Both the position numbers and the translations under genes were made by a program. The notes beneath the pieces were generated by a model. It saw nothing but the letters and a program-made list of their open reading frames with translations. It made no database searches and was not told the origin of the DNA. From the sequence record NC_047766.1: a stretch of DNA of 38,890 nt; one strand, 5' to 3'. This DNA comes from Escherichia phage ECA2. Each line of letters begins with the position of its first letter. The first letter of the stretch is position 1. This document shows, one piece after another, positions 467-32,786 of the stretch.

Positions 467-1057
467 ATGCGCTCTTATGAGATGAACATTGAGACCGCAG
501 AAGAGCTATCAGCCGTCAACGACATTCTGGCTTCCATCGGTGAGCCACCAGTATCAACCCTTGAGGGTGATGCGAATGCTGACGTTGCGAATGCTCGACG
601 CGTACTCAATAAGATTAACCGACAGATTCAATCACGAGGATGGACATTCAATATTGAGGAAGGTGTGACTCTTCTACCGGATGCGTTCTCTGGTATGATT
701 CCATTTAGCTCTGACTATCTGTCCGTAATGGCAACCAGCGGTCAGACCCAATATATCAACCGTGGTGGCTATCTCTATGACCGCTCTGCGAAGACTGACC
801 GATTTACTTCTGGTGTTCAGGTCAACCTGATTCGTCTGAGAGAGTTCGATGAGATGCCTGAGTGCTTCCGAAACTATATCGTTACCAAGGCTTCCCGCCA
901 GTTTAACAACCGCTTCTTCGGTGCGCCGGAGGTAGACGGAGTGTTGCAGGAAGAAGAACAGGAAGCGTGGCGTGCGTGCTTCGAGTACGAACTGGACTAC
1001 GGCAACTACAACATGCTGGACGGTGACGCATTCACCTCTGGTCTACTTAACCGCTAA
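467..1057 (+). CDS. 11: Tail tubular protein A (gp11)
   Basis: 196 aa; N-terminus [28 protein letters not shown] matches recalled T7 gp11; RBS AGGAGG upstream. Confidence 0.95.
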
Positions 1058-1072
1058 TAACAAGGAGGCTCT

Positions 1073-3478
1073 ATGGCTCTCATTAGCCAATCAATCAAAA
1101 ACCTCAAGGGTGGTATCAGCCAACAGCCAGATATTCTCCGGTTCGCTGAACAAGGTAGCGTACAGATTAACGGTTGGTCTTCTGAGTCCGAGGGCCTCCA
1201 GAAGCGCCCACCGATGATTCACCTTAAGACCCTTGGCTCTGCTGGGTATGTGGGTGCGCAACCTTACGTGCATCTCATCAACCGTGATGAGTTCGAGCAG
1301 TATTTCGTTGTGTTCACTGGTGAAGACATTAAGGTGTTCGATCTCGATGGTAAGGAGTATCAAGTCCGTGGAGACCGCTCATATGTTCGTACAGCTAACC
1401 CACGGGAAGACCTTCGGATGGTAACTGTGGCTGATTATACCTTTGTGACTAACCGCAAGGTGGTTGTACAGAGTAACGACCAATCGGTCAACCTTCCGGG
1501 CTTTAAAGACCAAGGCGATGCGCTGATTAATGTTCGTGGTGGACAATATGGGCGTAGACTATCAATCGAGTTCAACGGGGCTGAGCGTGCTGCTGTGCAA
1601 CTACCAGACGGTTCACAACCAGCACACGTCAATGAGGTTGACGGTCAGGCTATCGCTGAGAAGCTGGCGGCTCAGTTGCGGAATAACCTAGGGAACCCAA
1701 ACAATGACCAAGACCCAAATAAGTGGCGGTTCAATGTTGGCCCCGGATTCATCCATATCCTTGCGCCAAATAACGATAACGTTTGGGGACTACAGACTAA
1801 GGATGGTTACGCAGACCAGCTAATCAACCCTGTAACCCATTACACTCAGTCGTTCCAGAAGCTGCCTATCAACGCTCCAGATGGGTACATTGTGAAAATT
1901 GTAGGTGACACCTCCAAGACTGCCGACCAGTATTACGTTAGGTTCGACCTCAACCGTAAGGTATGGGTAGAAACAATCGGCTGGAACACAAGGACTCACC
2001 TACATTACCACACGATGCCTTGGGCGCTGGTACGCGCTTCTGACGGGAACTTTGACTTCAAGTACCTTGAGTGGGGTGCTCGTACTGTTGGCGATGATAC
2101 AACTAACCCATACCCTTCCTTTACCGGACAGACAATCAACGATATTTTCTTCTTCCGAAACCGTTTGGGATTCCTTAGCGGGGAGAACATCATCTTGTCT
2201 CGCACCTCGAAATACTTCAACTTCTTCCCGGCCTCCGTGTCAAACTACTCCGACGATGACCCAATAGACGTTGCCGTTAGTCACAACCGGGTGTCAACCT
2301 TGAAGTATGCCGTTCCGTTCTCCGAAGAGTTACTCCTATGGTCTGACCAAGCGCAGTTCGTTCTGACAGCTTCTGGTATCCTTTCGAGTCGCTCCGTAGA
2401 GTTGAACCTTACTACTCAGTTTGATGTGCAAGACAGGGCACGCCCACATGGTGTAGGACGTAATGTATACTTTGCGTCACCTCGCGCTTCCTTCACATCC
2501 ATTAACCGATACTATGCGGTACAGGATGTAAGCTCTGTGAAGAACGCAGAGGACATGACGGCTCACGTTCCGAACTACATACCTAATGGGGTATTTAGTA
2601 TCTCGGGCACAACTGCTGAGAACTTCGTGGCTATCCTTACGAGTGGTGCGCCTAACCGAGTGTATATCTATAAGTTCCTCTACATTGACGAGGAAATCAG
2701 GCAGCAGTCGTGGTCTCATTGGGACTTTGGGGACAACGTTACGGTGTTCGCAGCACAGGTCATAAACTCAACAATGACAGTATTGATGAGCAACGAACAT
2801 GCTGTGTGGATGGGGCGCTTACACTTCACGAAGGACTCCATAGACCTTCCGGGAGAACCTTACAGGTTGTATATCGACGCTAAGAGGAAGTACACCATCC
2901 CTGCTGGGACATACAATGATGATACCTACCAGACGTCCATAAGCCTCTCAACGATTTACGGGATGAACTTCACGAAGGGTAGGGTTTCGGTGGTCTTTCC
3001 TGATGGGAAGATTGTAGAGGTAGACCAGCCAATCAACGGTTGGAGCAGTGACCCGGTGTTACGACTTGATGGGAACCAAGAGGGACAAGTAGTCTACATT
3101 GGGTTCAACATCCCGTTCACTTATACGTTCTCGAAGTTCCTCATCAAGAAGACTGCTGAGGACGGCTCGACGGCTACCGAGGATATTGGTCGCTTACAGC
3201 TTCGGCGTGCATGGGTAAACTATGAGGATTCTGGCGCGTTCACCATCCGTGTGAACAACCTGTCCCGTGAGTTCATCTACACAATGGCTGGTGCTCGCTT
3301 GGGTTCTGACAATCTGCGTGTTGGCAGGTCGAACATTGGCACAGGGCAGTACCGCTTCCCGGTTGTTGGAAACGCTCAGACGAACATAGTAACTATCGAG
3401 TCAGACGCATCAACCCCACTGAACATCATTGGGTGCGGCTGGGAGGGGAACTACCTTCGTCGTTCTTCTGGCATTTAA
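1073..3478 (+). CDS. 12: Tail tubular protein B (gp12)
   Basis: 801 aa ORF directly after gene 11 with RBS AAGGAGG; size and position as in T7/T3. Confidence 0.93.
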   Translation: MALISQSIKNLKGGISQQPDILRFAEQGSVQINGWSSESEGLQKRPPMIHLKTLGSAGYVGAQPYVHLINRDEFEQYFVVFTGEDIKVFDLDGKEYQVRGDRSYVRTANPREDLRMVTVADYTFVTNRKVVVQSNDQSVNLPGFKDQGDALINVRGGQYGRRLSIEFNGAERAAVQLPDGSQPAHVNEVDGQAIAEKLAAQLRNNLGNPNNDQDPNKWRFNVGPGFIHILAPNNDNVWGLQTKDGYADQLINPVTHYTQSFQKLPINAPDGYIVKIVGDTSKTADQYYVRFDLNRKVWVETIGWNTRTHLHYHTMPWALVRASDGNFDFKYLEWGARTVGDDTTNPYPSFTGQTINDIFFFRNRLGFLSGENIILSRTSKYFNFFPASVSNYSDDDPIDVAVSHNRVSTLKYAVPFSEELLLWSDQAQFVLTASGILSSRSVELNLTTQFDVQDRARPHGVGRNVYFASPRASFTSINRYYAVQDVSSVKNAEDMTAHVPNYIPNGVFSISGTTAENFVAILTSGAPNRVYIYKFLYIDEEIRQQSWSHWDFGDNVTVFAAQVINSTMTVLMSNEHAVWMGRLHFTKDSIDLPGEPYRLYIDAKRKYTIPAGTYNDDTYQTSISLSTIYGMNFTKGRVSVVFPDGKIVEVDQPINGWSSDPVLRLDGNQEGQVVYIGFNIPFTYTFSKFLIKKTAEDGSTATEDIGRLQLRRAWVNYEDSGAFTIRVNNLSREFIYTMAGARLGSDNLRVGRSNIGTGQYRFPVVGNAQTNIVTIESDASTPLNIIGCGWEGNYLRRSSGI

Positions 3479-3963: not shown

Positions 3964-4557
3964 ATGTGCTGGATGGCAGCGATTCCTATTGCCATGATGG
4001 GCGCCCAAGCTCTAAGTAGCCAGAACAGTGCTGACAAGGCGCGAGTGGCACAGACCGAAGCTGGACGCAGACAGGTAATAGAGATGGTCAAAGAGACGAA
4101 TATCCAAAATGCCAACGCCTCGCTGGAACAACGGGACGCCCTTGAGGCTGCATCCTCTGAGTTGACTTCACGTAACATGCAGAAGGTACAGGCTATGGGA
4201 ACCATCCGTGCAGCTATCGGCGAGAGTATGCTAGAAGGTGAATCCATGAAGCGCATAAAGCGTATCGAAGAGGGCAACTACATTCGGGAGGCAAATAGTG
4301 TCACCGAGAATTACCGCCGAGACTACGCGAGTATCTTTGCGCAACAGTTGGGACGCACTCAGTCCACAGCAAGTCAAGTCGATGCAATGTACAAGAGCGA
4401 GGCCAAGGGTAAGTCTGGTCTGATGCGTGTGCTAGACCCTCTGTCTATTATGGGTCAGGAAGCTGCAAGTCAATATGCGGCTGGTGGATTTGACAAGAAA
4501 GGTGGAAACCAAGCAGCACCTATCAGTGCCGCCAAAGGAACCAAGACCGGGAGGTAA
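3964..4557 (+). CDS. 14: Internal virion (core) protein B (gp14)
   Basis: 197 aa; RBS AGGAGG; synteny and size (T7 gp14 is 196 aa). Confidence 0.88.
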   Translation: MCWMAAIPIAMMGAQALSSQNSADKARVAQTEAGRRQVIEMVKETNIQNANASLEQRDALEAASSELTSRNMQKVQAMGTIRAAIGESMLEGESMKRIKRIEEGNYIREANSVTENYRRDYASIFAQQLGRTQSTASQVDAMYKSEAKGKSGLMRVLDPLSIMGQEAASQYAAGGFDKKGGNQAAPISAAKGTKTGR

Positions 4558-13100: not shown

Positions 13101-13147
13101 GTTATTTGGTGCATCTACGTGAAATCTAAAAATTGATGGGAGGTGTT

Positions 13148-13621
13148 ATGCTAAAACTTTTACGCAGCGCACTCCCTTGGGTACTCGCCGGGACACTCTT
13201 TATGGGTGGCTGGCACTTAGGGTCAACCCATGAGAGAGCAAACTGGAAGGAGGTAATCCAAAATGAATACATTGCGAAAACAAAAGCTGATATCCAACAG
13301 CATAATGCAGTACAGACAGCACTCGATGCCATTGCTAAGCGGCACTCCGATGAGATGGCTGAACTTGAGGGGAGCACTGATGGGATTGTTAATGCTCTCA
13401 ATGCTGATAACAAGCGGCTGCGTGTCAAACTCAAAGCTATCAGTGGAACACCCGGCGATAAACAGCAGTGTATCAGCACAGTTGATGGAAAAGCCGAACT
13501 TGACGAAGGAGATGCTAAGCGTCTTATCGGAATAGCTCAGAAGGGTGATAAGTGGATTGAGAACCTACAGGACACTGTGCGAGTTCTCCAAGGTAAACTC
13601 AAAGAGAAGGAGACTAAGTAA
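13148..13621 (+). CDS. 18.5: Rz-like i-spanin (gp18.5)
   Basis: Start ATG 13148 with RBS GGGAGGTG; N-terminal TM segment; matches recalled T7 gp18.5 (LRSALPWVLAG...DNKRLRV). Confidence 0.88.
   Translation: MLKLLRSALPWVLAGTLFMGGWHLGSTHERANWKEVIQNEYIAKTKADIQQHNAVQTALDAIAKRHSDEMAELEGSTDGIVNALNADNKRLRVKLKAISGTPGDKQQCISTVDGKAELDEGDAKRLIGIAQKGDKWIENLQDTVRVLQGKLKEKETK
13263..13535 (+). CDS. 18.7: Rz1-like o-spanin lipoprotein (gp18.7), embedded in 18.5 in the +1 frame
   Basis: Lipobox-like LITSGC; embedded arrangement as in T7 18.5/18.7. Confidence 0.75.
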   Translation: MNTLRKQKLISNSIMQYRQHSMPLLSGTPMRWLNLRGALMGLLMLSMLITSGCVSNSKLSVEHPAINSSVSAQLMEKPNLTKEMLSVLSE

Positions 13622-14046
13622 TGGCTATGGGAAGACCAAGGGCGTCTCAGTTAGAGCGGGAATGTTCGACCTGCGGTCTGACTAAGCCCGTTTCTGAGTT
13701 TCATAAGAATGGCAACCTGCGGGGTGTCCCTCAGTATAAAACAACTTGTAAGCCATGCCGTAAGGCTGCAACCCAACCAGACACCTACAGGAAATATCAC
13801 CTCAAGGCTCGTTACGGTATTACCGTGGATGAGTATGACGCGTTGGAGAAGGCCCAAGGAGGAGTGTGTAAGATTTGTCAGAGGCCAGAGACTCAGCGTA
13901 AGAGACTCGCCGTTGACCACTGCCATACTACTGGTGCTGTTCGTGGCTTACTGTGTACAACCTGCAATGCGGCAATCGGTCATCTATTGGATGACCCAGA
14001 GATTATCCGTAGGGCTGCTGACTACGTAGGAGGAACCCTTGAGTAA
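13621..14046 (+). CDS. HNH endonuclease, endonuclease VII-type (putative homing endonuclease)
   Basis: 141 aa; motif [40 protein letters not shown] typical of the Endonuclease_7 / HNH family; start overlaps 18.5 stop (TAATG) and 3' end overlaps the gene 19 start. Confidence 0.8.
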
Positions 14047-15802
14047 CTCACAAGAGGCCCGCAATGCCTTAATAGTTGCGCAACTTAAAGGAGATTTTGT
14101 CGCTTTCTTATTTGTCCTATGGAAAGCCCTTTCGCTTCCACAACCCACTAAGTGTCAGATTGATATGGCACGGTGTCTGGCTAACGGAGACAACAAGAAG
14201 TTTATCCTACAGGCTTTCCGTGGTATCGGTAAGTCATTCATCACCTGTGCGTTCGTTGTGTGGACGCTGTGGCGTGACCCTCAGTTGAAGATACTGATTG
14301 TCTCTGCATCCAAAGAACGTGCGGACGCTAACTCCATCTTCATCAAGAACATCATTGACCTGCTGCCCTTCTTGGCTGAGCTAAAGCCTCGCCCCGGTCA
14401 GCGTGACTCTGTGATTAGTTTCGATGTTGGCCCTGCCAAGCCTGACCACTCTCCGTCTGTGAAGTCGGTGGGTATCACTGGTCAGTTGACTGGTAGTCGT
14501 GCTGATATCATCATAGCAGATGACGTTGAGATTCCGTCTAACTCCGCAACTCAAGGTGCCCGTGAGAAGCTGTGGACTCTGGTGCAGGAATTTGCTGCGC
14601 TTCTGAAACCGCTGCCGACTTCTCGCGTTATCTACCTTGGCACGCCTCAAACCGAAATGACCTTGTACAAGGAACTCGAAGATAACCGTGGGTACACCAC
14701 AATCATCTGGCCTGCGCTCTATCCGCGTAGCCGTGAGGAAGACTTGTACTATGGCGACCGTCTGGCCCCGATGCTCCGCGAAGAGTTCAACGATGGGTTC
14801 GAGATGCTCCAAGGTCAACCGACTGACCCCGTGCGCTTCGATATGGAAGACCTACGTGAGCGTGAGTTGGAATACGGTAAGGCTGGCTTCACTTTGCAGT
14901 TCATGCTCAACCCGAACCTTAGTGATGCCGAGAAGTACCCCTTACGCCTCCGTGACGCTATCGTGTGCGGTCTTGACTTCGAGAAAGCCCCAATGCATTA
15001 CCAGTGGCTACCGAACCGTCAGAATCGCAATGAAGAGCTTCCTAATGTGGGACTTAAGGGTGATGATATTCATAGCTATCATTCGTGCAGCCAGAACACT
15101 GGACAGTACCAGCAACGCATCCTCGTGATTGACCCAAGTGGTCGTGGTAAAGATGAGACAGGTTACGCAGTGTTGTTCACCCTGAATGGCTACATCTATC
15201 TGATGGAAGCTGGCGGGTTCCGCGATGGTTATTCCGATAAGACCCTTGAGTCCCTCGCTAAGAAAGCGAAGCAGTGGAAGGTTCAGACCGTGGTCTTCGA
15301 GAGCAACTTCGGGGATGGTATGTTTGGTAAGGTATTCAGTCCTGTGCTCCTGAAACACCATGCAGCCGCTATGGAAGAGATTCGCGCTCGTGGTATGAAG
15401 GAACTACGCATTTGTGATACGCTGGAACCTGTGCTCTCTACGCACCGCCTTGTGATTCGTGATGAGGTGATTCGTGAGGACTACCAGACTGCCCGTGACG
15501 CTGATGGCAAGCATGACGTTCGCTATTCGCTGTTCTACCAGTTGACCCGTATGGCCCGTGAGAAGGGCGCTGTGGCACATGACGACCGACTTGATGCGTT
15601 AGCATTGGGTGTGGAGTTCTTACGCTCTACGATGGAACTGGACGCCGTGAAGGTGGAGGCTGAGGTGCTTGAGGCGTTCTTAGAGGAACACATGGAGCAC
15701 CCAATCCATTCGGCTGGTCATGTAGTTACCTCGATGGTTGACGGTATGGAACTCTATTGGGAGGATGACGATGTGAATAGCAACAGGTTCATTGACTGGT
15801 AG
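14039..15802 (+). CDS. 19: Terminase large subunit (gp19), apparent TTG start
   Basis: 587 aa; conserved N-terminus [30 protein letters not shown] begins at TTG 14039; AGGAGG at 14028-14033; in-frame TAG at 14027-14029 closes the frame upstream. Confidence 0.9.
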
Positions 15803-19891: not shown

Positions 19892-22546
19892 ATGAACATC
19901 ATCGAAAACATCGAAAAGAATGACTTCTCCGAAATCGAACTGGCTGCTATCCCGTTCAACACACTGGCAGACCACTACGGCAGCGCATTGGCTCGTGAAC
20001 AACTGACTTTAGAGCATGAGTCTTATGAGCTAGGCGAGCGCCGCTTCCTCAAGATGCTTGAGCGTCAAGCAAAAGCTGGTGAGATTGCAGACAACGCAGC
20101 CGCTAAGCCATTACTCGCTACGCTTCTCCCTAAGTTAACCACACGTATCGTCGAGTGGCTCGAAGGGTACGCATCGAAGAAAGGCCGCAAGCCTAGCGCA
20201 TACGCACCGCTCCAGTTACTCAAGCCGGAAGCCTCCGCGTTTATCACCCTGAAAGTTATCCTTGCGTCACTGACCAGCACGAACATGACAACCATTCAGG
20301 CCGCTGCTGGTATGCTGGGGAAGGCCATTGAGGATGAGGCACGTTTCGGGCGCATCCGTGACCTCGAAGCGAAGCACTTCAAGAAGCACGTTGAGGAACA
20401 GCTTAACAAGCGCCACGGGCAAGTCTACAAGAAAGCCTTTATGCAGGTGGTAGAGGCCGATATGATTGGTCGAGGCCTGCTTGGAGGTGAGGCGTGGTCT
20501 AGCTGGGACAAGGAAACAACGATGCACGTAGGGATTCGCCTGATTGAAATGCTGATTGAATCCACGGGTCTGGTGGAATTACAGCGCCACAACGCAGGCA
20601 ACGCAGGCTCTGACCATGAGGCACTGCAACTGGCCCAAGAGTACGTCGATGTGCTAGCGAAGCGTGCAGGAGCACTGGCGGGTATCTCTCCGATGTTCCA
20701 GCCGTGTGTCGTACCGCCGAAACCTTGGGTAGCAATCACAGGTGGCGGCTATTGGGCTAACGGTCGCAGACCTTTGGCACTCGTTCGCACTCACTCTAAG
20801 AAGGGCTTGATGCGCTATGAGGATGTTTACATGCCAGAAGTTTACAAGGCGGTCAACATCGCACAGAACACCGCATGGAAAATCAACAAGAAAGTTCTTG
20901 CGGTTGTCAATGAGATTGTGAACTGGAAGAACTGCCCGGTCGCAGACATTCCATCTCTGGAGCGCCAAGAGTTACCGCCTAAGCCGGACGACATTGACAC
21001 CAACGAGGCAGCACTCAAGGAGTGGAAGAAAGCCGCCGCTGGTATCTACCGCTTGGACAAGGCACGAGTGTCTCGCCGTATCAGCTTAGAGTTCATGCTG
21101 GAGCAGGCAAACAAGTTTGCAAACAAGAAAGCAATCTGGTTCCCTTACAACATGGACTGGCGCGGTCGTGTGTACGCTGTGCCGATGTTCAACCCACAAG
21201 GCAACGACATGACGAAAGGTCTGCTGACCCTCGCTAAAGGCAAGCCAATCGGTGAGGAAGGTTTCTACTGGCTGAAAATCCACGGTGCGAACTGTGCGGG
21301 TGTCGATAAGGTTCCTTTCCCTGAGCGCATCGCGTTCATTGAGAAGCACGTAGACGACATTCTGGCTTGCGCTAAAGACCCAATCAATAACACTTGGTGG
21401 GCCGAGCAGGATTCACCTTTCTGTTTCCTCGCGTTCTGCTTCGAGTATGCAGGCGTTGCGCACCACGGTCTGAGCTACAATTGCTCACTGCCGCTGGCGT
21501 TCGACGGGTCTTGCTCTGGTATCCAGCACTTCTCCGCGATGCTGCGCGATGAGGTAGGCGGTCGTGCGGTTAACCTGCTGCCAAGCGAAACCGTGCAGGA
21601 CATTTACGGCATCGTTGCACAGAAGGTGAACGAGATTCTCAAACAGGATGCAATCAACGGCACACCTAACGAGATGATTACCGTGACTGATAAGGACACC
21701 GGGGAAATCTCAGAGAAGCTCAAGCTGGGAACCTCAACGCTGGCGCAACAGTGGCTGGCATATGGTGTAACCCGTAGCGTAACTAAACGTTCGGTCATGA
21801 CGCTGGCTTACGGTTCCAAGGAGTTCGGCTTTCGTCAACAGGTATTGGACGACACCATTCAGCCTGCGATTGACAGCGGTAAGGGCTTGATGTTCACCCA
21901 ACCGAACCAAGCGGCTGGCTATATGGCTAAGCTGATTTGGGACGCGGTGAGCGTGACCGTAGTCGCAGCGGTTGAGGCGATGAACTGGCTCAAGTCTGCC
22001 GCTAAGCTGCTGGCTGCTGAGGTCAAGGACAAGAAGACCAAGGAGATTCTGCGTCACCGTTGCGCGGTTCACTGGACTACGCCGGACGGCTTCCCGGTAT
22101 GGCAGGAATACCGCAAGCCACTCCAGAAGCGTCTCGATATGATTTTCTTAGGGCAATTCCGTCTGCAACCGACGATTAATACCCTCAAGGATTCAGGCAT
22201 TGACGCACACAAGCAGGAGTCTGGCATCGCTCCTAACTTTGTTCACTCACAGGACGGTAGCCACCTCCGCATGACAGTCGTTTATGCTCACGAGAAGTAT
22301 GGCATTGAGTCCTTTGCGCTGATTCACGATAGCTTCGGGACTATCCCGGCAGACGCTGGCAAGCTGTTCAAGGCTGTGCGTGAAACGATGGTCATTACCT
22401 ACGAGAACAACGATGTGCTGGCAGACTTCTATGACCAGTTTGCAGACCAGTTGCACGAGACCCAACTGGACAAGATGCCTCCACTTCCGAAGAAAGGAAA
22501 CCTGAACCTGCAAGACATTCTCAAGTCTGACTTTGCCTTTGCATAA
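19892..22546 (+). CDS. 1: Single-subunit DNA-dependent RNA polymerase, T3-type
   Basis: 884 aa; N-terminus MNIIENIEKNDFSEIELAAIPFNTLADHYG and overall sequence match recalled T3 RNAP; promoters in the genome are T3-type. Confidence 0.97.
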   Translation: MNIIENIEKNDFSEIELAAIPFNTLADHYGSALAREQLTLEHESYELGERRFLKMLERQAKAGEIADNAAAKPLLATLLPKLTTRIVEWLEGYASKKGRKPSAYAPLQLLKPEASAFITLKVILASLTSTNMTTIQAAAGMLGKAIEDEARFGRIRDLEAKHFKKHVEEQLNKRHGQVYKKAFMQVVEADMIGRGLLGGEAWSSWDKETTMHVGIRLIEMLIESTGLVELQRHNAGNAGSDHEALQLAQEYVDVLAKRAGALAGISPMFQPCVVPPKPWVAITGGGYWANGRRPLALVRTHSKKGLMRYEDVYMPEVYKAVNIAQNTAWKINKKVLAVVNEIVNWKNCPVADIPSLERQELPPKPDDIDTNEAALKEWKKAAAGIYRLDKARVSRRISLEFMLEQANKFANKKAIWFPYNMDWRGRVYAVPMFNPQGNDMTKGLLTLAKGKPIGEEGFYWLKIHGANCAGVDKVPFPERIAFIEKHVDDILACAKDPINNTWWAEQDSPFCFLAFCFEYAGVAHHGLSYNCSLPLAFDGSCSGIQHFSAMLRDEVGGRAVNLLPSETVQDIYGIVAQKVNEILKQDAINGTPNEMITVTDKDTGEISEKLKLGTSTLAQQWLAYGVTRSVTKRSVMTLAYGSKEFGFRQQVLDDTIQPAIDSGKGLMFTQPNQAAGYMAKLIWDAVSVTVVAAVEAMNWLKSAAKLLAAEVKDKKTKEILRHRCAVHWTTPDGFPVWQEYRKPLQKRLDMIFLGQFRLQPTINTLKDSGIDAHKQESGIAPNFVHSQDGSHLRMTVVYAHEKYGIESFALIHDSFGTIPADAGKLFKAVRETMVITYENNDVLADFYDQFADQLHETQLDKMPPLPKKGNLNLQDILKSDFAFA

Positions 22547-22997: not shown

Positions 22998-23138
22998 ATG
23001 CGTACCAACTTTGAGAAATTTACCAAGCGCGATTCAGTGGTCAACGAGCATGGCGAACAGTGGCAAGAGCGCCGTGACCGCATGAAGAAACGCCACAAGC
23101 AACAGCGCGGTAACTCACAGAAACGGGAGTGGAACTAA
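22998..23138 (+). CDS. 1.1: gp1.1 small basic protein
   Basis: 46 aa, MRTNFEKFTKRDS...; RBS GAGGTAAG; similar to recalled T7 gp1.1. Confidence 0.8.
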   Translation: MRTNFEKFTKRDSVVNEHGEQWQERRDRMKKRHKQQRGNSQKREWN

Positions 23139-23416
23139 TGATGATGGGACGTATCTATAGCGGCAACCTGAACGATTACAAAGACGCGGTAGCGCGTCTA
23201 CAGGAAGACCATGACGTGACCGTGAAGGTGGAGTCATTCAGCTATGAAAACCCAGCGAAGATGTGCAGGTCATCCGGTGAGGCTCTACGTGTGTTCACAC
23301 GCTCAGGGCATTTGGTGGCATCCAGAACCTTCGAGCACAGCGACAGCGATGTACAAATCAACGCGCAGACTGCATGGCTCCGTAAGGTTCACAGCGATTT
23401 GAAACACTGGAAGTAA
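23138..23416 (+). CDS. 1.2: gp1.2, inhibitor of host dGTP triphosphohydrolase
   Basis: MMMGRIYSGNLNDYK...DLKHWK matches recalled T7 gp1.2 termini; start among three tandem ATGs (23138/23141/23144) is uncertain. Confidence 0.85.
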   Translation: MMMGRIYSGNLNDYKDAVARLQEDHDVTVKVESFSYENPAKMCRSSGEALRVFTRSGHLVASRTFEHSDSDVQINAQTAWLRKVHSDLKHWK

Positions 23417-23437
23417 TAACCCTCACTAACAGGAGAA
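23414..23437 (+). promoter_or_regulatory. Phage RNAP promoter (phi1.3-like)
   Basis: TAATAACCCTCACTAACAGGAGAA. Confidence 0.8.
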
Positions 23438-23442
23438 ACGAC

Positions 23443-23859
23443 ATGAGAAACATCGAACGGTTCAACGCAAAGACTGAACCTTGCGGTGACTGTCTACGTT
23501 GGACTGGTCGAATCCAGCCTAACGGTTACGGACAGTTTCGCCTCGAAGGTAAAACACAATACGCACATCGAGCAGCTTACAAGCTGTTTATCGGTGAACT
23601 GGACAATAAAGATACAGTCCTTCACTCGTGCGACAACAGGTGGTGTGTGAACCCTGAGCATTTGACCAAGGGAACGCAGGCCGATAACCTGAAAGACATG
23701 GCGATAAAGGGTAGACACCACGCCATTAAGATTCCGAACGATGCCATTGAGGGCATCCGCAAAGACCCTCGCTCTTCCACTGTGATAGCGGCTGAGTGGG
23801 GCGTCCACCCAACAACCATCCATAAGATTAAGCGAAATATTAACAGGAGATTCGTATGA
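23443..23859 (+). CDS. HNH homing endonuclease (HNH_3-type) between promoter phi1.3 and the ligase gene
   Basis: 138 aa; motif AHRAAYKLFIGELDNKDTVLHSCDNRWCVNPEHLTKGTQADNLKDM; stop overlaps ligase start (ATGA). Confidence 0.8.
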   Translation: MRNIERFNAKTEPCGDCLRWTGRIQPNGYGQFRLEGKTQYAHRAAYKLFIGELDNKDTVLHSCDNRWCVNPEHLTKGTQADNLKDMAIKGRHHAIKIPNDAIEGIRKDPRSSTVIAAEWGVHPTTIHKIKRNINRRFV

Positions 23860-24872
23860 ACATTTTCAAGACCGCGCCATATAAAGCTGTATCCTTTGTT
23901 GAGTCTGCCGTGCGTAAAGCGCTGGAGACTTCCGGCTACCTGATAGCGGATTGTAAATATGACGGTGTTCGTGGAAACATTGTGGTTGACAACGTGGCTG
24001 AGGCCGCATGGTTGTCTCGCGTCTCCAAGTTCATCCCGGCGCTGGAACATCTGAACGGTTTCGATAAGCGCTGGCAACAACTGATGAATGATGACCGCTG
24101 CATTTTCCCTGATGGCTTCATGCTGGATGGTGAACTGATGGTCAAAGGCGTAGACTTCAACACGGGGTCTGGCCTGCTGCGTACCAAGTGGCTCAAGAAG
24201 AACAACTTCATGTTTGACCGTGGTGGTGTTGAGCCGCTGAAAGGTTCCAAAGTAGCCTTTGAGTTAGACCCTAAGCGCCTGAGTGTGCGCCTGTATGCGG
24301 TCATGCCGATTCACATTGCTGAGTCTGGCGAGGACTACGATGTGCAGAACCTCCTGATGCCATATCATGTGGAAGCCATGCGCTCTCTTCTGGTTGAATA
24401 CTTCCCGGAAATCGAGTGGCTTATCGCTGAGACCTACGAGGTCTACGATATGGATTCACTGACTGAACTGTACGAAGAGAAGCGTGCCGAAGGTCACGAG
24501 GGTCTCATTGTGAAAGACCCGCAAGGCATCTACAAGCGAGGCAAGAAGTCTGGCTGGTGGAAGCTAAAGCCTGAGTGTGAAGCTGATGGTATCATTCAGG
24601 GTGTCAATTGGGGAACCAAAGGGTTAGCCAACGAGGGTAAAGTGATAGGCTTTAGTGTGCTTCTTGAGACTGGTCGTTTAGTAGACGCCAACAACATCTC
24701 TCGCGCACTGATGGACGAGTTCACAGCCAACGTTAAAGCCCACGGTGAAGACTTCTACAACGGGTGGGCCTGTCAGGTCAACTATATGGAAGAGACCCCG
24801 GACGGCTCCCTGCGTCACCCTAGCTTCGAGAAGTTCCGAGGCACTGAGGACAACCCTCAAGAGAAAATGTAA
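23856..24872 (+). CDS. 1.3: ATP-dependent DNA ligase (gp1.3)
   Basis: 338 aa; adenylation motif KYDGVRG; strong match to recalled T7 ligase. Confidence 0.95.
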   Translation: MNIFKTAPYKAVSFVESAVRKALETSGYLIADCKYDGVRGNIVVDNVAEAAWLSRVSKFIPALEHLNGFDKRWQQLMNDDRCIFPDGFMLDGELMVKGVDFNTGSGLLRTKWLKKNNFMFDRGGVEPLKGSKVAFELDPKRLSVRLYAVMPIHIAESGEDYDVQNLLMPYHVEAMRSLLVEYFPEIEWLIAETYEVYDMDSLTELYEEKRAEGHEGLIVKDPQGIYKRGKKSGWWKLKPECEADGIIQGVNWGTKGLANEGKVIGFSVLLETGRLVDANNISRALMDEFTANVKAHGEDFYNGWACQVNYMEETPDGSLRHPSFEKFRGTEDNPQEKM

Positions 24873-30352: not shown

Positions 30353-32467
30353 ATGCTCGTAAGTGACATTGAGTCCAACAACCTCTTAGAGAAAGTCACC
30401 AAGTTTCACTGTGGCGTTATCTATGACTACCGTGATGGTGAGTATCATAGTTATCGTCCGGGCGACTTCGGGGCGTATCTGGATGCGCTGGAAGCCGAGG
30501 TGAAGCGAGGTGGGCTTATTGTTTTCCATAACGGTCACAAGTATGACGTTCCGGCTTTAGAGAAACTCGCAAAGCTGCAACTTAATCGTGACTTCAAGTT
30601 ACCACGTGAGAATTGTATTGACACACTGGTACTCTCGCGTTTACTTCATGCGAACCTTAAAGACACAGACATGGGGCTTCTTCGTTCCGGGAAACTACCC
30701 GGTCGTCACTTCGGGTCTCACGCTCTTGAGGCATGGGGTTATCGCTTGGGCGAGATGAAGGGTGAATACAAGGACGACTTCAAGGCTATGCTGGAAGAGC
30801 AGGGCGAAGAGTATGTTGATGGTGCTGAGTGGGTTTCGTTCAACGAGCCGATGATGGCGTATAACGTTCAAGACGTTGTGGTCACTGTCAAGCTCTTAGA
30901 GAAATTCCTTACAGACCTCCACTACTTCCCTGCTGGTATTGACTTCACGAAGTACGATGCGGATTTATTCTGGCGAGAAGCTGGCGAATCTGTGGATATT
31001 GAACATCGTGCAGCGTGGCTTTTAGCGAAGCAGGAGCGTAACGGCTTCCCGTTCAACACCAAGGCAATTGAGGAACTTTATGTAGAACTGGCAGCGAAAC
31101 GCGCCGAACTTCTGCGAAAGTTAACCGAAACGTTTGGCTCGTGGTATCAACCGAAAGGTGGTAAGGAACTCTTCAAGCACCCACGGACAGGCAAGCCGCT
31201 GCCGAGTTACCCTCGCGTGGTCTATCCGAAACAGGGTGGCGTGTATAAGAAGCCTCGTAATAAGGCACAGCGCGAAGGTCTTGAACCTTGCGACTTGGAC
31301 ACGAGGGACTACATGGAGGGTGCTCCGTATACTCCGGTAGAGTTCGTTACGTTCAAGCCAAGTAGCCGTGACCACATTCAGAAGAAACTACAGGAGGCCG
31401 GATGGGTTCCTGAGAAGTTCACCGAGAAGGGTGCGCCTGTGGTGGACGATGAGGTCTTGGAGCATGTACGAGTGGATGACCCTGAGAAGCAGGCGTGCAT
31501 TGACTTGATTAAAGAGTACCTGATGATTCAGAAGCGAATCGGTCAGGCGGCAGAGGGAGACAAGGCGTGGTTACGTTATGTTCAAGATGATGGTAAGATT
31601 CACGGAGCCGTTAACCCTAACGGTGCAGTTACTGGTCGTGCTACTCATAGTTTCCCAAACCTTGCACAAGTACCCGGCGTTCGTTCTCCTTACGGGGAGC
31701 AGTGTCGTAGCGCTTTTGGTGCTGAACATCATTTGGATGGGATTACTGGCAAGCCGTGGGTGCAAGCGGGGATAGACGCCAGTGGCTTAGAGTTGCGCTG
31801 TCTGGCACACTTCATGGCTCGCTTCGACAACGGAGAGTATGCGAATGAGATTCTCAACGGTGACATTCACACCAAGAACCAGAACGCTGCGGAACTACCA
31901 ACGCGTGACAACACCAAGACCTTCATTTACGGGTTCCTTTACGGAGCCGGAGATGAGAAGCTTGGTCAGATTGTTGGGGCAGGGAAGGAGCGCGGGAAGG
32001 AACTCAAGAAGAAATTCTTAGAGAACACCCCGGCGATTGCAGCGCTACGAGAAGCCATCCAACAGTCACTCGTTAAGTCTTCCACTTGGATTGGTGGTGA
32101 GCAGAAAGTCCAGTGGAAACGCCGTTGGATTAAGGGTCTGGATGGTCGCAAGGTTCACGTCAGGTCTCCACACGCAGCTCTCAACACATTGTTGCAGTCT
32201 GCTGGTGCTCTAATTTGTAAGCTGTGGATTATCAAGACCGAAGAGATGCTCATTGAGAAAGGCTTGAAGCATGGCTGGGATGGTGACTTTGTGTACATGG
32301 CTTGGGTTCACGATGAGATTCAGGTGGCCTGCCGTACAGAGCACATCGCTCAGATTGTTATTGACACCGCGCAGGAAGCTATGCGTTGGGTCGGAGAGCA
32401 TTGGGCTTTCCGTTGTCGTTTAGATACCGAGGGTAAGATGGGGCCGAATTGGGCTGTCTGCCACTAA
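30353..32467 (+). CDS. 5: DNA polymerase (gp5), family A with 3'-5' exonuclease
   Basis: 704 aa, same length as T7 gp5; uninterrupted (no intron or intein). Confidence 0.97.
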   Translation: MLVSDIESNNLLEKVTKFHCGVIYDYRDGEYHSYRPGDFGAYLDALEAEVKRGGLIVFHNGHKYDVPALEKLAKLQLNRDFKLPRENCIDTLVLSRLLHANLKDTDMGLLRSGKLPGRHFGSHALEAWGYRLGEMKGEYKDDFKAMLEEQGEEYVDGAEWVSFNEPMMAYNVQDVVVTVKLLEKFLTDLHYFPAGIDFTKYDADLFWREAGESVDIEHRAAWLLAKQERNGFPFNTKAIEELYVELAAKRAELLRKLTETFGSWYQPKGGKELFKHPRTGKPLPSYPRVVYPKQGGVYKKPRNKAQREGLEPCDLDTRDYMEGAPYTPVEFVTFKPSSRDHIQKKLQEAGWVPEKFTEKGAPVVDDEVLEHVRVDDPEKQACIDLIKEYLMIQKRIGQAAEGDKAWLRYVQDDGKIHGAVNPNGAVTGRATHSFPNLAQVPGVRSPYGEQCRSAFGAEHHLDGITGKPWVQAGIDASGLELRCLAHFMARFDNGEYANEILNGDIHTKNQNAAELPTRDNTKTFIYGFLYGAGDEKLGQIVGAGKERGKELKKKFLENTPAIAALREAIQQSLVKSSTWIGGEQKVQWKRRWIKGLDGRKVHVRSPHAALNTLLQSAGALICKLWIIKTEEMLIEKGLKHGWDGDFVYMAWVHDEIQVACRTEHIAQIVIDTAQEAMRWVGEHWAFRCRLDTEGKMGPNWAVCH

Positions 32468-32486: not shown

Positions 32487-32786
32487 ATGGCTATGACCAA
32501 GAAATTTAAAGTGTCATTCGACGTTACCGCTAAGATGGCATCTGACGTTCAGGAAATCTTGGAGAAAGACATTCTGCACCTGTGTAAGCAGGTTGGCTCA
32601 GGCGCTATTGTCCCCTATGGTAAACAGAAAGAGATGATTGTCCAGTTCCTGACGTATGGCATGGAGGGGCTGATGGCCTTCCTTGTGCGAACGTCTTTCC
32701 GTGAGGCCATCAAAGATATGAACGAAGAGTATGCCGATAAGGACAGCTTCAAGCTGTCTCCCGCTACTGTACGGGAGGTGTTCTAA
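32487..32786 (+). CDS. 5.5: gp5.5 (H-NS-binding protein in T7)
   Basis: 99 aa; MAMTKKFKVSFDVTAKMASDVQEILEKD... nearly identical to recalled T7 gp5.5. Confidence 0.93.
   Translation: MAMTKKFKVSFDVTAKMASDVQEILEKDILHLCKQVGSGAIVPYGKQKEMIVQFLTYGMEGLMAFLVRTSFREAIKDMNEEYADKDSFKLSPATVREVF

Follow-up and report, generated by a model that had tools for sequence, protein, structure and literature searches.

A probable freestanding HNH homing endonuclease gene in place of the R1.3 leader between promoter phi1.3 and the DNA ligase gene of Escherichia phage ECA2

The Seg and Mob proteins of T-even phages (SegF, SegG, MobE) are encoded by intergenic ORFs that lie beside conserved genes and occur sporadically among relatives. 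They cut a nearby endonuclease-free allele and spread with co-conversion of flanking markers, resulting in marker exclusion. I-HmuI is encoded in an intron within the DNA polymerase gene of Bacillus phage SPO1 and nicks one strand. Relatives of T3 and T7 carry dispersed, variable homing HNH genes (PMC11680406, PMC4925675), described as "parasitic" in the relatives of T3 (PMC11680406). The putative HNH homing endonuclease genes 2.8 of T7 and 5.3 and 7.7 of T7/T3 are small freestanding ORFs, variable among relatives, that lie between essential class II genes (PMC4925675, PMC11680406). Their slots are the 2.5/3 junction and the positions after gene 5 and after gene 7. For the slot between gene 1.2 and the ligase gene, a literature search found no paper dealing with it.

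The window analyzed here is the whole 38,890-nucleotide stretch of Escherichia phage ECA2 DNA (NC_047766.1), a circularly permuted T3-like phage genome of the genus Teetrevirus, for which the closest public record was Enterobacter phage E-4 (96.4% identity over 90% of the first 25 kb). The features of the locus were as follows.

19892..22546: T3-type RNA polymerase gene; genes 1.05, 1.1 and 1.2 come next, then the HNH locus
23138..23416, + strand: gene 1.2 (dGTPase inhibitor), left neighbor; Pfam T7-like_gp12, E 1.2e-13; annotated as gene 1.2 in relatives
23414..23436, + strand: phi1.3, T3-type class II promoter of 23 nt, TAATAACCCTCACTAACAGGAGA; read from sequence and aligned with the annotated phi1.3 of T3 and phiSG-JL2
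23437..23852, + strand: cassette of the carriers, 416 nt, in place of the 71-nt R1.3 leader; from alignments with phiSG-JL2 and SM9-3Y
23443..23859, + strand: HNH/His-Me-finger endonuclease ORF, 138 aa, ATG start; from profile matches, a 39-homologue alignment, a predicted structure and dN/dS
23560..23688, + strand: predicted HNH_3 catalytic core, aa 40-82, including HSCDNRWCVNPEHL...ADN
23737..23832, + strand: predicted C-terminal three-helix helix-turn-helix (HTH) DNA-binding domain, aa ~99-130
23845..23850, + strand: putative ligase Shine-Dalgarno sequence AGGAGA within the 3′ end of the HNH ORF; read from sequence, conserved in orthologous loci
23856..24872, + strand: gene 1.3, ATP-dependent DNA ligase, 338 aa, right neighbor; annotated as DNA ligase in all relatives
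23860..23960, + strand: linked divergent tract, first ~100 nt of the ligase gene; from carrier versus non-carrier identity and haplotype tables

The stop codon of gene 1.2 (TAA, 23414..23416) forms the opening three bases of the phi1.3 promoter, which matched the annotated phi1.3 promoters of T3 and phiSG-JL2 base for base; alignment with these would place the transcription start (+1) at 23431. The ATG of the HNH ORF follows 7 nt past the promoter at 23443, and its stop codon (TGA, 23857..23859) overlaps the ligase ATG (23856..23858), giving the sequence ATGA at 23856..23859. The first-pass annotation had described a 138-aa ORF in the interval 23414-23859, preceded by a phage promoter, overlapping the ligase start and containing a motif that corresponds to HSCDNRWCVNPEHL; each of these elements was recovered, with the motif at aa 61-74.

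The encoded protein matched Pfam HNH_3 (PF13392) at aa 40-82 (E 4.5e-9, 36.2 bits, against a curated cut-off of 24.8) and zf-His_Me_endon slightly below the cut-off of that family (E 6.5e-6, 26.8 bits against 27). Nine HNH or endonuclease PHROG families also matched, the top one being phrog_59 "HNH endonuclease" (1.1e-31), and the sole PADLOC match was a "homing endonuclease" model, while an NCBIfam profile search of the protein returned no family. Homologues numbered 72 in a large protein collection. In an alignment of 39 homologues, C17, Y29, G30, H42, H61, C63, C68, H73 and N82 were invariant, and D64, N65 and N70 were at least 90% conserved; the conserved His, Asn and Cys/His positions are those expected of a zinc-stabilized His-Me finger, in which they would be the catalytic and zinc residues. 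The reading frame is intact and purifying selection acts on it, with dN/dS of about 0.1: values were 0.03–0.15 within Teetrevirus and 0.115 against a T7-type orthologue, a comparison in which dS is saturated. The Pfam and PHROG matches, the 72 homologues and this dN/dS show that the ORF is far more than a chance reading frame.

An AlphaFold model of the protein was confident (pLDDT 90.9) and contained beta hairpins, a beta-beta-alpha core, a linker helix and three C-terminal helices; the beta-beta-alpha-metal fold of the His-Me-finger class was found in this predicted structure, which appeared closest to the homing endonucleases I-HmuI and I-PpoI. Foldseek returned only I-PpoI, weakly (E 0.026), and a PDB sequence search with the protein gave chance immunoglobulin hits only, so that no solved structure was detectable in this way. 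A weak match to HTH_23 at aa 113-134 and the three-helix fold indicate that the basic C-terminal region is an HTH, as in I-HmuI, rather than an AP2 domain; AP2 (PF00847) gave no match to the C terminus at E ≤ 1. Of the HNH_3 and AP2-like domains proposed in the first-pass annotation, the former was thus borne out by a profile score above the Pfam gathering threshold and the latter gave way to the HTH. The protein would then pair a nuclease core resembling that of I-HmuI with an HTH at the C terminus.

Sequence identity to I-HmuI (PDB 1u3e) was 19%, a relationship undetectable by the PDB sequence search, and the ECA2 gene differs from the intron-encoded enzyme in being freestanding and intergenic. 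The nearest gene in a model phage was the homologous T7 gene 2.8 (tblastn, 37.9% identity over aa 17-129, E 2e-13). Genes 2.8, 5.3 and 7.7 are of like size and share HNH_3 and zf-His_Me_endon with the ECA2 gene; they occupy other slots and presumably have other targets, whereas the ECA2 lineage is tied to the ligase start. No homologue of gene 5.3 is present in ECA2, where the DNA polymerase gene (30353..32467) directly precedes gene 5.5 (32487..32786); phiYeO3-12 and SH2 have this homing endonuclease gene. Seg proteins are GIY-YIG enzymes and Mob proteins are HNH enzymes unrelated in detail, and their activity has been demonstrated, whereas the ECA2 protein is a predicted HNH enzyme. At the same gene 1.2-ligase position, the "endonuclease" of Enterobacter phage E-2 (NC_029102) and the "HNH endonuclease" of Klebsiella phages Patroon and Poynor are 96–100% identical to the ECA2 protein, without a difference of substance, and are database annotations only. 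An identical protein is already annotated in E-2, and the gene is of an ordinary, known kind of selfish phage gene.

To find carriers, a 1.5-kb query across the locus was used, which matched 207 phage records; of these, 104 reached ≥90% nucleotide identity. The complete query was covered in only 13 records, and nearly all others covered 72%, that is, all but the HNH ORF. The 13 records (Enterobacter phages E-2, in two records, and E-4; Klebsiella phages 6998, 69101, Patroon, Bumbleweed, Poynor, mtp1, mtp14 and mtp15; Shigella phages CT02 and ESh12) were confirmed by tblastn at 95.7–100% protein identity, and in several of them the gene already bears the annotation "HNH endonuclease" or "endonuclease". 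Carriers therefore made up 13 of ~104 close relatives (about one in eight), and the ~90 non-carriers have the R1.3 leader.

At the exact position of the cassette, non-carriers have a 71-nt leader with an annotated R1.3 RNase III hairpin. The first-pass annotation had the promoter followed directly by the ligase gene in T7; as a correction, in T3 and phiSG-JL2 this leader lies between the two. In the alignments with phiSG-JL2 and SM9-3Y from which the cassette boundaries were set, homology ended on the left at ...CAGGAGA (promoter +6) and resumed on the right at CGTATGAAC (CGTATG of the ligase). Because the leader is present in non-carriers and 416 nt stand there in carriers, the cassette stands in place of the leader, with loss of the R1.3 site, and is not an insertion into an empty gap. 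The R1.3 hairpin of T3/phiSG-JL2 (1033..1072 of locus L001, 2920..2959 of locus L050) is missing from ECA2 (23437..23855) and from all carriers, and no replacement hairpin was predicted around the HNH/ligase junction. The R1.3 leader is common to T3-type and T7-type phages, which makes it the older of the two states and the cassette a derived one. The 1.2-1.3 region thus shows a clean presence/absence polymorphism, and the ORF is not ancestral in all relatives, which agrees with the mobile character that the first-pass annotation had given it.

A 10-nt direct repeat, TAACAGGAGA, is present on both sides of the cassette: the copy at 23427..23436 is the promoter end, and that at 23841..23850 includes the ligase Shine-Dalgarno sequence. 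In T7-type carriers the sequence found at both cassette ends is limited to (A/G)GGAGA. The repeat could reflect ribosome-binding sites that converged in sequence or a microhomology exploited during insertion. Three T7-like IMG/VR contigs (L012, L046, L047) and Serratia phage SM9-3Y (L038) have the R1.3 leader and no cassette, yet their ligase genes have the cassette-type 5′ haplotype; these empty sites could be pre-insertion backgrounds or genomes after gene loss. Scans of IMG/VR with ligase motif patterns yielded few extra loci (7 and 22).

The same slot is occupied in other genera. Orthologues of 64–74% identity were found directly upstream of the ligase gene in nine more records (Teseptimavirus PDP351P2, 64795_ec1 in two records, Cedecea phage Yanou, Bas104, Yersinia phage WW2, Shigella phages ESh1 and ESh3, Minipunavirus phiA020), and a metagenomic contig had a 57% identical orthologue, likewise directly upstream of ligase. 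In T7-type carriers the ORF starts 6–7 nt past the promoter TAATACGACTCAGTATAGGGAGA and its variants, its stop codon again forms ATGA with the ligase start, and cassette-free relatives of these carriers have the R1.3 leader. Homologues of ≤49% identity were found at other loci (before a P22-type coat gene, in the gap between the endonuclease I and primase-helicase genes, beside DNA polymerase, and others), which suggests that the family diversifies by site, like homing endonuclease families. In Klebsiella phage ChM-G5 an unrelated HNH_3 gene (1046..1501 of locus L002) occupies the same phi1.3-ligase slot, overlaps the ligase start by 29 nt and has a weak AP2 match (E 0.005). In Klebsiella phage VAC1 another HNH_3 gene (4058..4531 of locus L035) overlaps the 3′ end of the ligase gene. 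In view of these two phages, the ligase gene has the look of an endonuclease-gene hot spot.

For ~6.5 kb around the locus, 9–10 carriers and 9–10 non-carriers were aligned; the identity comparison, with 9 carriers and 10 non-carriers, drew on a small sample that is not phylogenetically independent. Mean identity at the 3′ end of the RNA polymerase gene was 97.3% for carrier-carrier pairs, 97.6% for non-carrier-non-carrier pairs and 97.3% for mixed pairs, and the three pair types were also equally similar in genes 1.1-1.2, mid-ligase, gene 1.6 and gene 2.5 (flanks ~95–97%). The equal pair identities in these five flanking segments argue that the carriers are not a clade. Differentiation between the two groups was confined to the opening ~100 nt of the ligase gene: for 23860..23960, mean identity was 86.6% between carriers, 95.0% between non-carriers and 79.4% in mixed pairs. 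Gene 1.7, 1.5 kb away, has quite different alleles among carriers. A count of 37 fixed differences between carriers and non-carriers was rejected as nearly all alignment artefact, the leader having been aligned onto the HNH ORF. Only the synonymous position 23891 was real, and in the sample of 19 it was the only allele perfectly associated with the cassette.

The length of the linked tract varies. A carrier-specific haplotype at 23867..23925 is shared by ECA2, E-2, 6998, Bumbleweed, CT02 and Patroon; ESh12 and mtp14 have a shorter tract followed by a T7-like haplotype (...ALDNAGYLI.DC...); and two IMG/VR carriers have nearly no tract, their ligase being SM9-3Y-like from the eleventh base on. 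On the left side lies the conserved promoter, with no variation to score. In ESh12 (L032) and mtp14 (L034), ligase codons ~21-33 read KKALDNAGYLICDC, which is typical of T7-like phages, and this stretch in T3-like phages points to an inter-genus mosaic right beside the cassette. Co-conversion during homing is predicted to leave linked tracts of variable length beside a conserved gene. The divergent ligase tract probably arose in this way, and the endonuclease target may lie within it; the localized divergence fits the T-even Seg/Mob model.

The most differentiated stretch between carriers and non-carriers was ligase codons ~4-23, which is one candidate target, the replaced leader being the other obvious candidate. 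In a first set of genomes, ligase motif I read D-C-KYDG, with Cys before the catalytic Lys, in 12 of 12 carriers and 3 of 31 non-carriers; most non-carriers had D-I/V-KYDG. With more loci and after removal of duplicates, the share with Cys was 10 of 14 among carriers and 4 of 29 among non-carriers. The idea that the Cys marks the target or confers immunity was rejected on the evidence of WW2, ESh1, Bas104 and phiA020, carriers of 64–66% HNH orthologues with Ile or Val at this position, and of T3, T7M, SM9-3Y and three IMG/VR contigs, which have the Cys without the HNH gene. The motif I Cys is at best a linked marker, not a general immunity determinant.

Taken together, 23443..23859 is most probably a freestanding HNH homing endonuclease gene, a selfish mobile gene of the HNH_3/His-Me-finger class. 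This reading draws on the family and fold matches, the invariant catalytic and zinc residues and the relationship to T7 gene 2.8; on carriage by a minority of close relatives that do not form a clade; on the sharp cassette boundaries and the recurrence of slot and ATGA in several genera; on the differentiated ligase tract, whose ends differ between carriers; on the low dN/dS, as a sign of retained function; and on reuse of the slot by the unrelated HNH_3(+AP2) gene of ChM-G5. The first-pass annotation had seen in the ORF a mobile freestanding endonuclease, a view strengthened by the HNH_3 match and by presence or absence at one slot. In a cell infected by a carrier and a cassette-free phage, the protein would nick or cut the empty allele near the leader or ligase start, recombinational repair from the carrier genome would copy the cassette together with a variable stretch of ligase, and carrier genomes would be immune as their site is disrupted or altered. 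Cleavage, target, biased inheritance, marker exclusion and super-Mendelian spread are ascribed to the gene by analogy with the described systems.

A more specific proposal is that the HNH lineage is locked to the ligase start across several T7-group genera and has become partly domesticated, with ligase expression dependent on the cassette and the target within ligase codons ~4-23. Slot and ATGA are kept at 57–100% HNH identity and behind both T3- and T7-type promoters, with promoter +1 to +6 as the HNH ribosome-binding site, R1.3 deleted and the ligase ribosome-binding site supplied by the cassette; as a whole, we consider the proposal unlikely.

The main rival to homing is that the HNH gene entered the slot in a T3/T7-like ancestor and is now inherited vertically, shuffled and lost by ordinary homologous recombination, and maybe decaying or idle. 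HNH divergence between T3-type and T7-type carriers (74% at the amino-acid level) is about that of the adjacent ligase (73%), and the position stays the same in orthologues as distant as 57% identity; the same picture would result from long vertical residence, with recombinational loss from time to time. Recombination in the flanks is pervasive, and in phages that recombine this freely a patchy distribution alone is no proof of endonuclease-driven spread. The failure of the motif I Cys immunity idea as a general rule, the want of any allele perfectly associated with the cassette other than the synonymous 23891, the PDB sequence search that detected no solved structure and the weak I-PpoI Foldseek match also speak against homing. 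However, no carrier has a broken ORF, all catalytic residues are kept and dN/dS is ~0.1, whereas an idle selfish gene should decay; the cassette is derived, since the leader that it replaced is common to T3-type and T7-type phages; and a differentiated tract of only ~100 nt fits repeated co-conversion, not neutral drift with free recombination. Long residence without homing was accordingly judged quite improbable.

The expression signals of the locus bear on a further alternative, in which the nuclease is domesticated. Predicted phi1.3 transcripts begin AGGAGAAACGACAUG, and promoter positions +1 to +6, AGGAGA (23431..23436), double as the putative Shine-Dalgarno sequence of the HNH gene, which would be transcribed with the early and class II genes. 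A second AGGAGA (23845..23850) lies in the last HNH codons, 5 nt before the ligase ATG, and the ligase is probably translated from these cassette-supplied signals; non-carrier ligase genes have GAGGAA in the leader as ribosome-binding site. Some T4 endonuclease genes are under translational control by RNA structure. No evidence for such control was found at this locus: folding gave no RNA structure sequestering either ribosome-binding site, and the phi1.3-initiated leader, the read-through leader and the HNH/ligase junction were no stabler than shuffled controls (z = −0.8, −0.9 and +0.9, respectively).

A domesticated protein would serve the phage as an exclusion weapon against competing phage or host DNA, or as a DNA-binding regulator coupling ligase expression to its own translation, with homing secondary or absent. 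Purifying selection is compatible with such a role, as is the tight integration of signals (promoter +1 to +6 as Shine-Dalgarno sequence, ligase Shine-Dalgarno sequence in the 3′ end, ATGA), and loss of R1.3 would keep endonuclease and ligase on one processed mRNA. Against this, ~88% of close relatives do well without the gene, which is unlinked to any particular host or genomic background and showed no defence or anti-defence similarity beyond the PADLOC "homing endonuclease" model; overlap with the downstream gene is moreover common in parasitic endonuclease genes, for example the Ca element of a Hafnia phage (PMC8861465). Domestication with little or no homing is thus very improbable. That the protein is an inactive relic with a dead HNH core, which only binds DNA and whose ORF is kept for the ligase ribosome-binding site, might be read from the missing NCBIfam match but is barely credible, given that the 39 homologues show little or no variation at H61, N70, H73, N82 and the Cys/His zinc ligands and that purifying selection extends across the whole ORF.

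For annotation, the homing reading would have the gene named HNH homing endonuclease with C-terminal HTH. In phage engineering and therapy, such cassettes can bias marker inheritance in mixed infections and alter ligase mRNA processing. Among selfish endonuclease genes of T7-group phages the ECA2 gene is a routine case, and no open question hinges on it; natural carrier/non-carrier pairs (an IMG/VR contig and SM9-3Y; 64795_ec1 and an empty-site relative) would be convenient material for locating the target of a new HNH enzyme.

A metagenomic homologue (P0013) was a chimera, with diverged N-terminal two thirds and the last ~45 residues (IKIPNDAIEGIRKDP...RRFV) nearly identical to the ECA2 protein, which suggests that nuclease and HTH modules may recombine among endonuclease genes. 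Elsewhere in the ECA2 genome, a 141-aa ORF at 13621..14046 (+ strand) matched Endonuclease_7 (PF02945, E 1.2e-28). It lies between an Rz-like lysis gene (13133..13621) and the large terminase gene (14039..15802) and overlaps both. Only 7–8 of 762 matching phage records covered it, including Klebsiella phages 31, mtp1, mtp4 and mtp14, Serratia phage 2050H2 and Seera, with E-2 and E-4 not among them; this ORF is probably a second freestanding endonuclease gene of ECA2.
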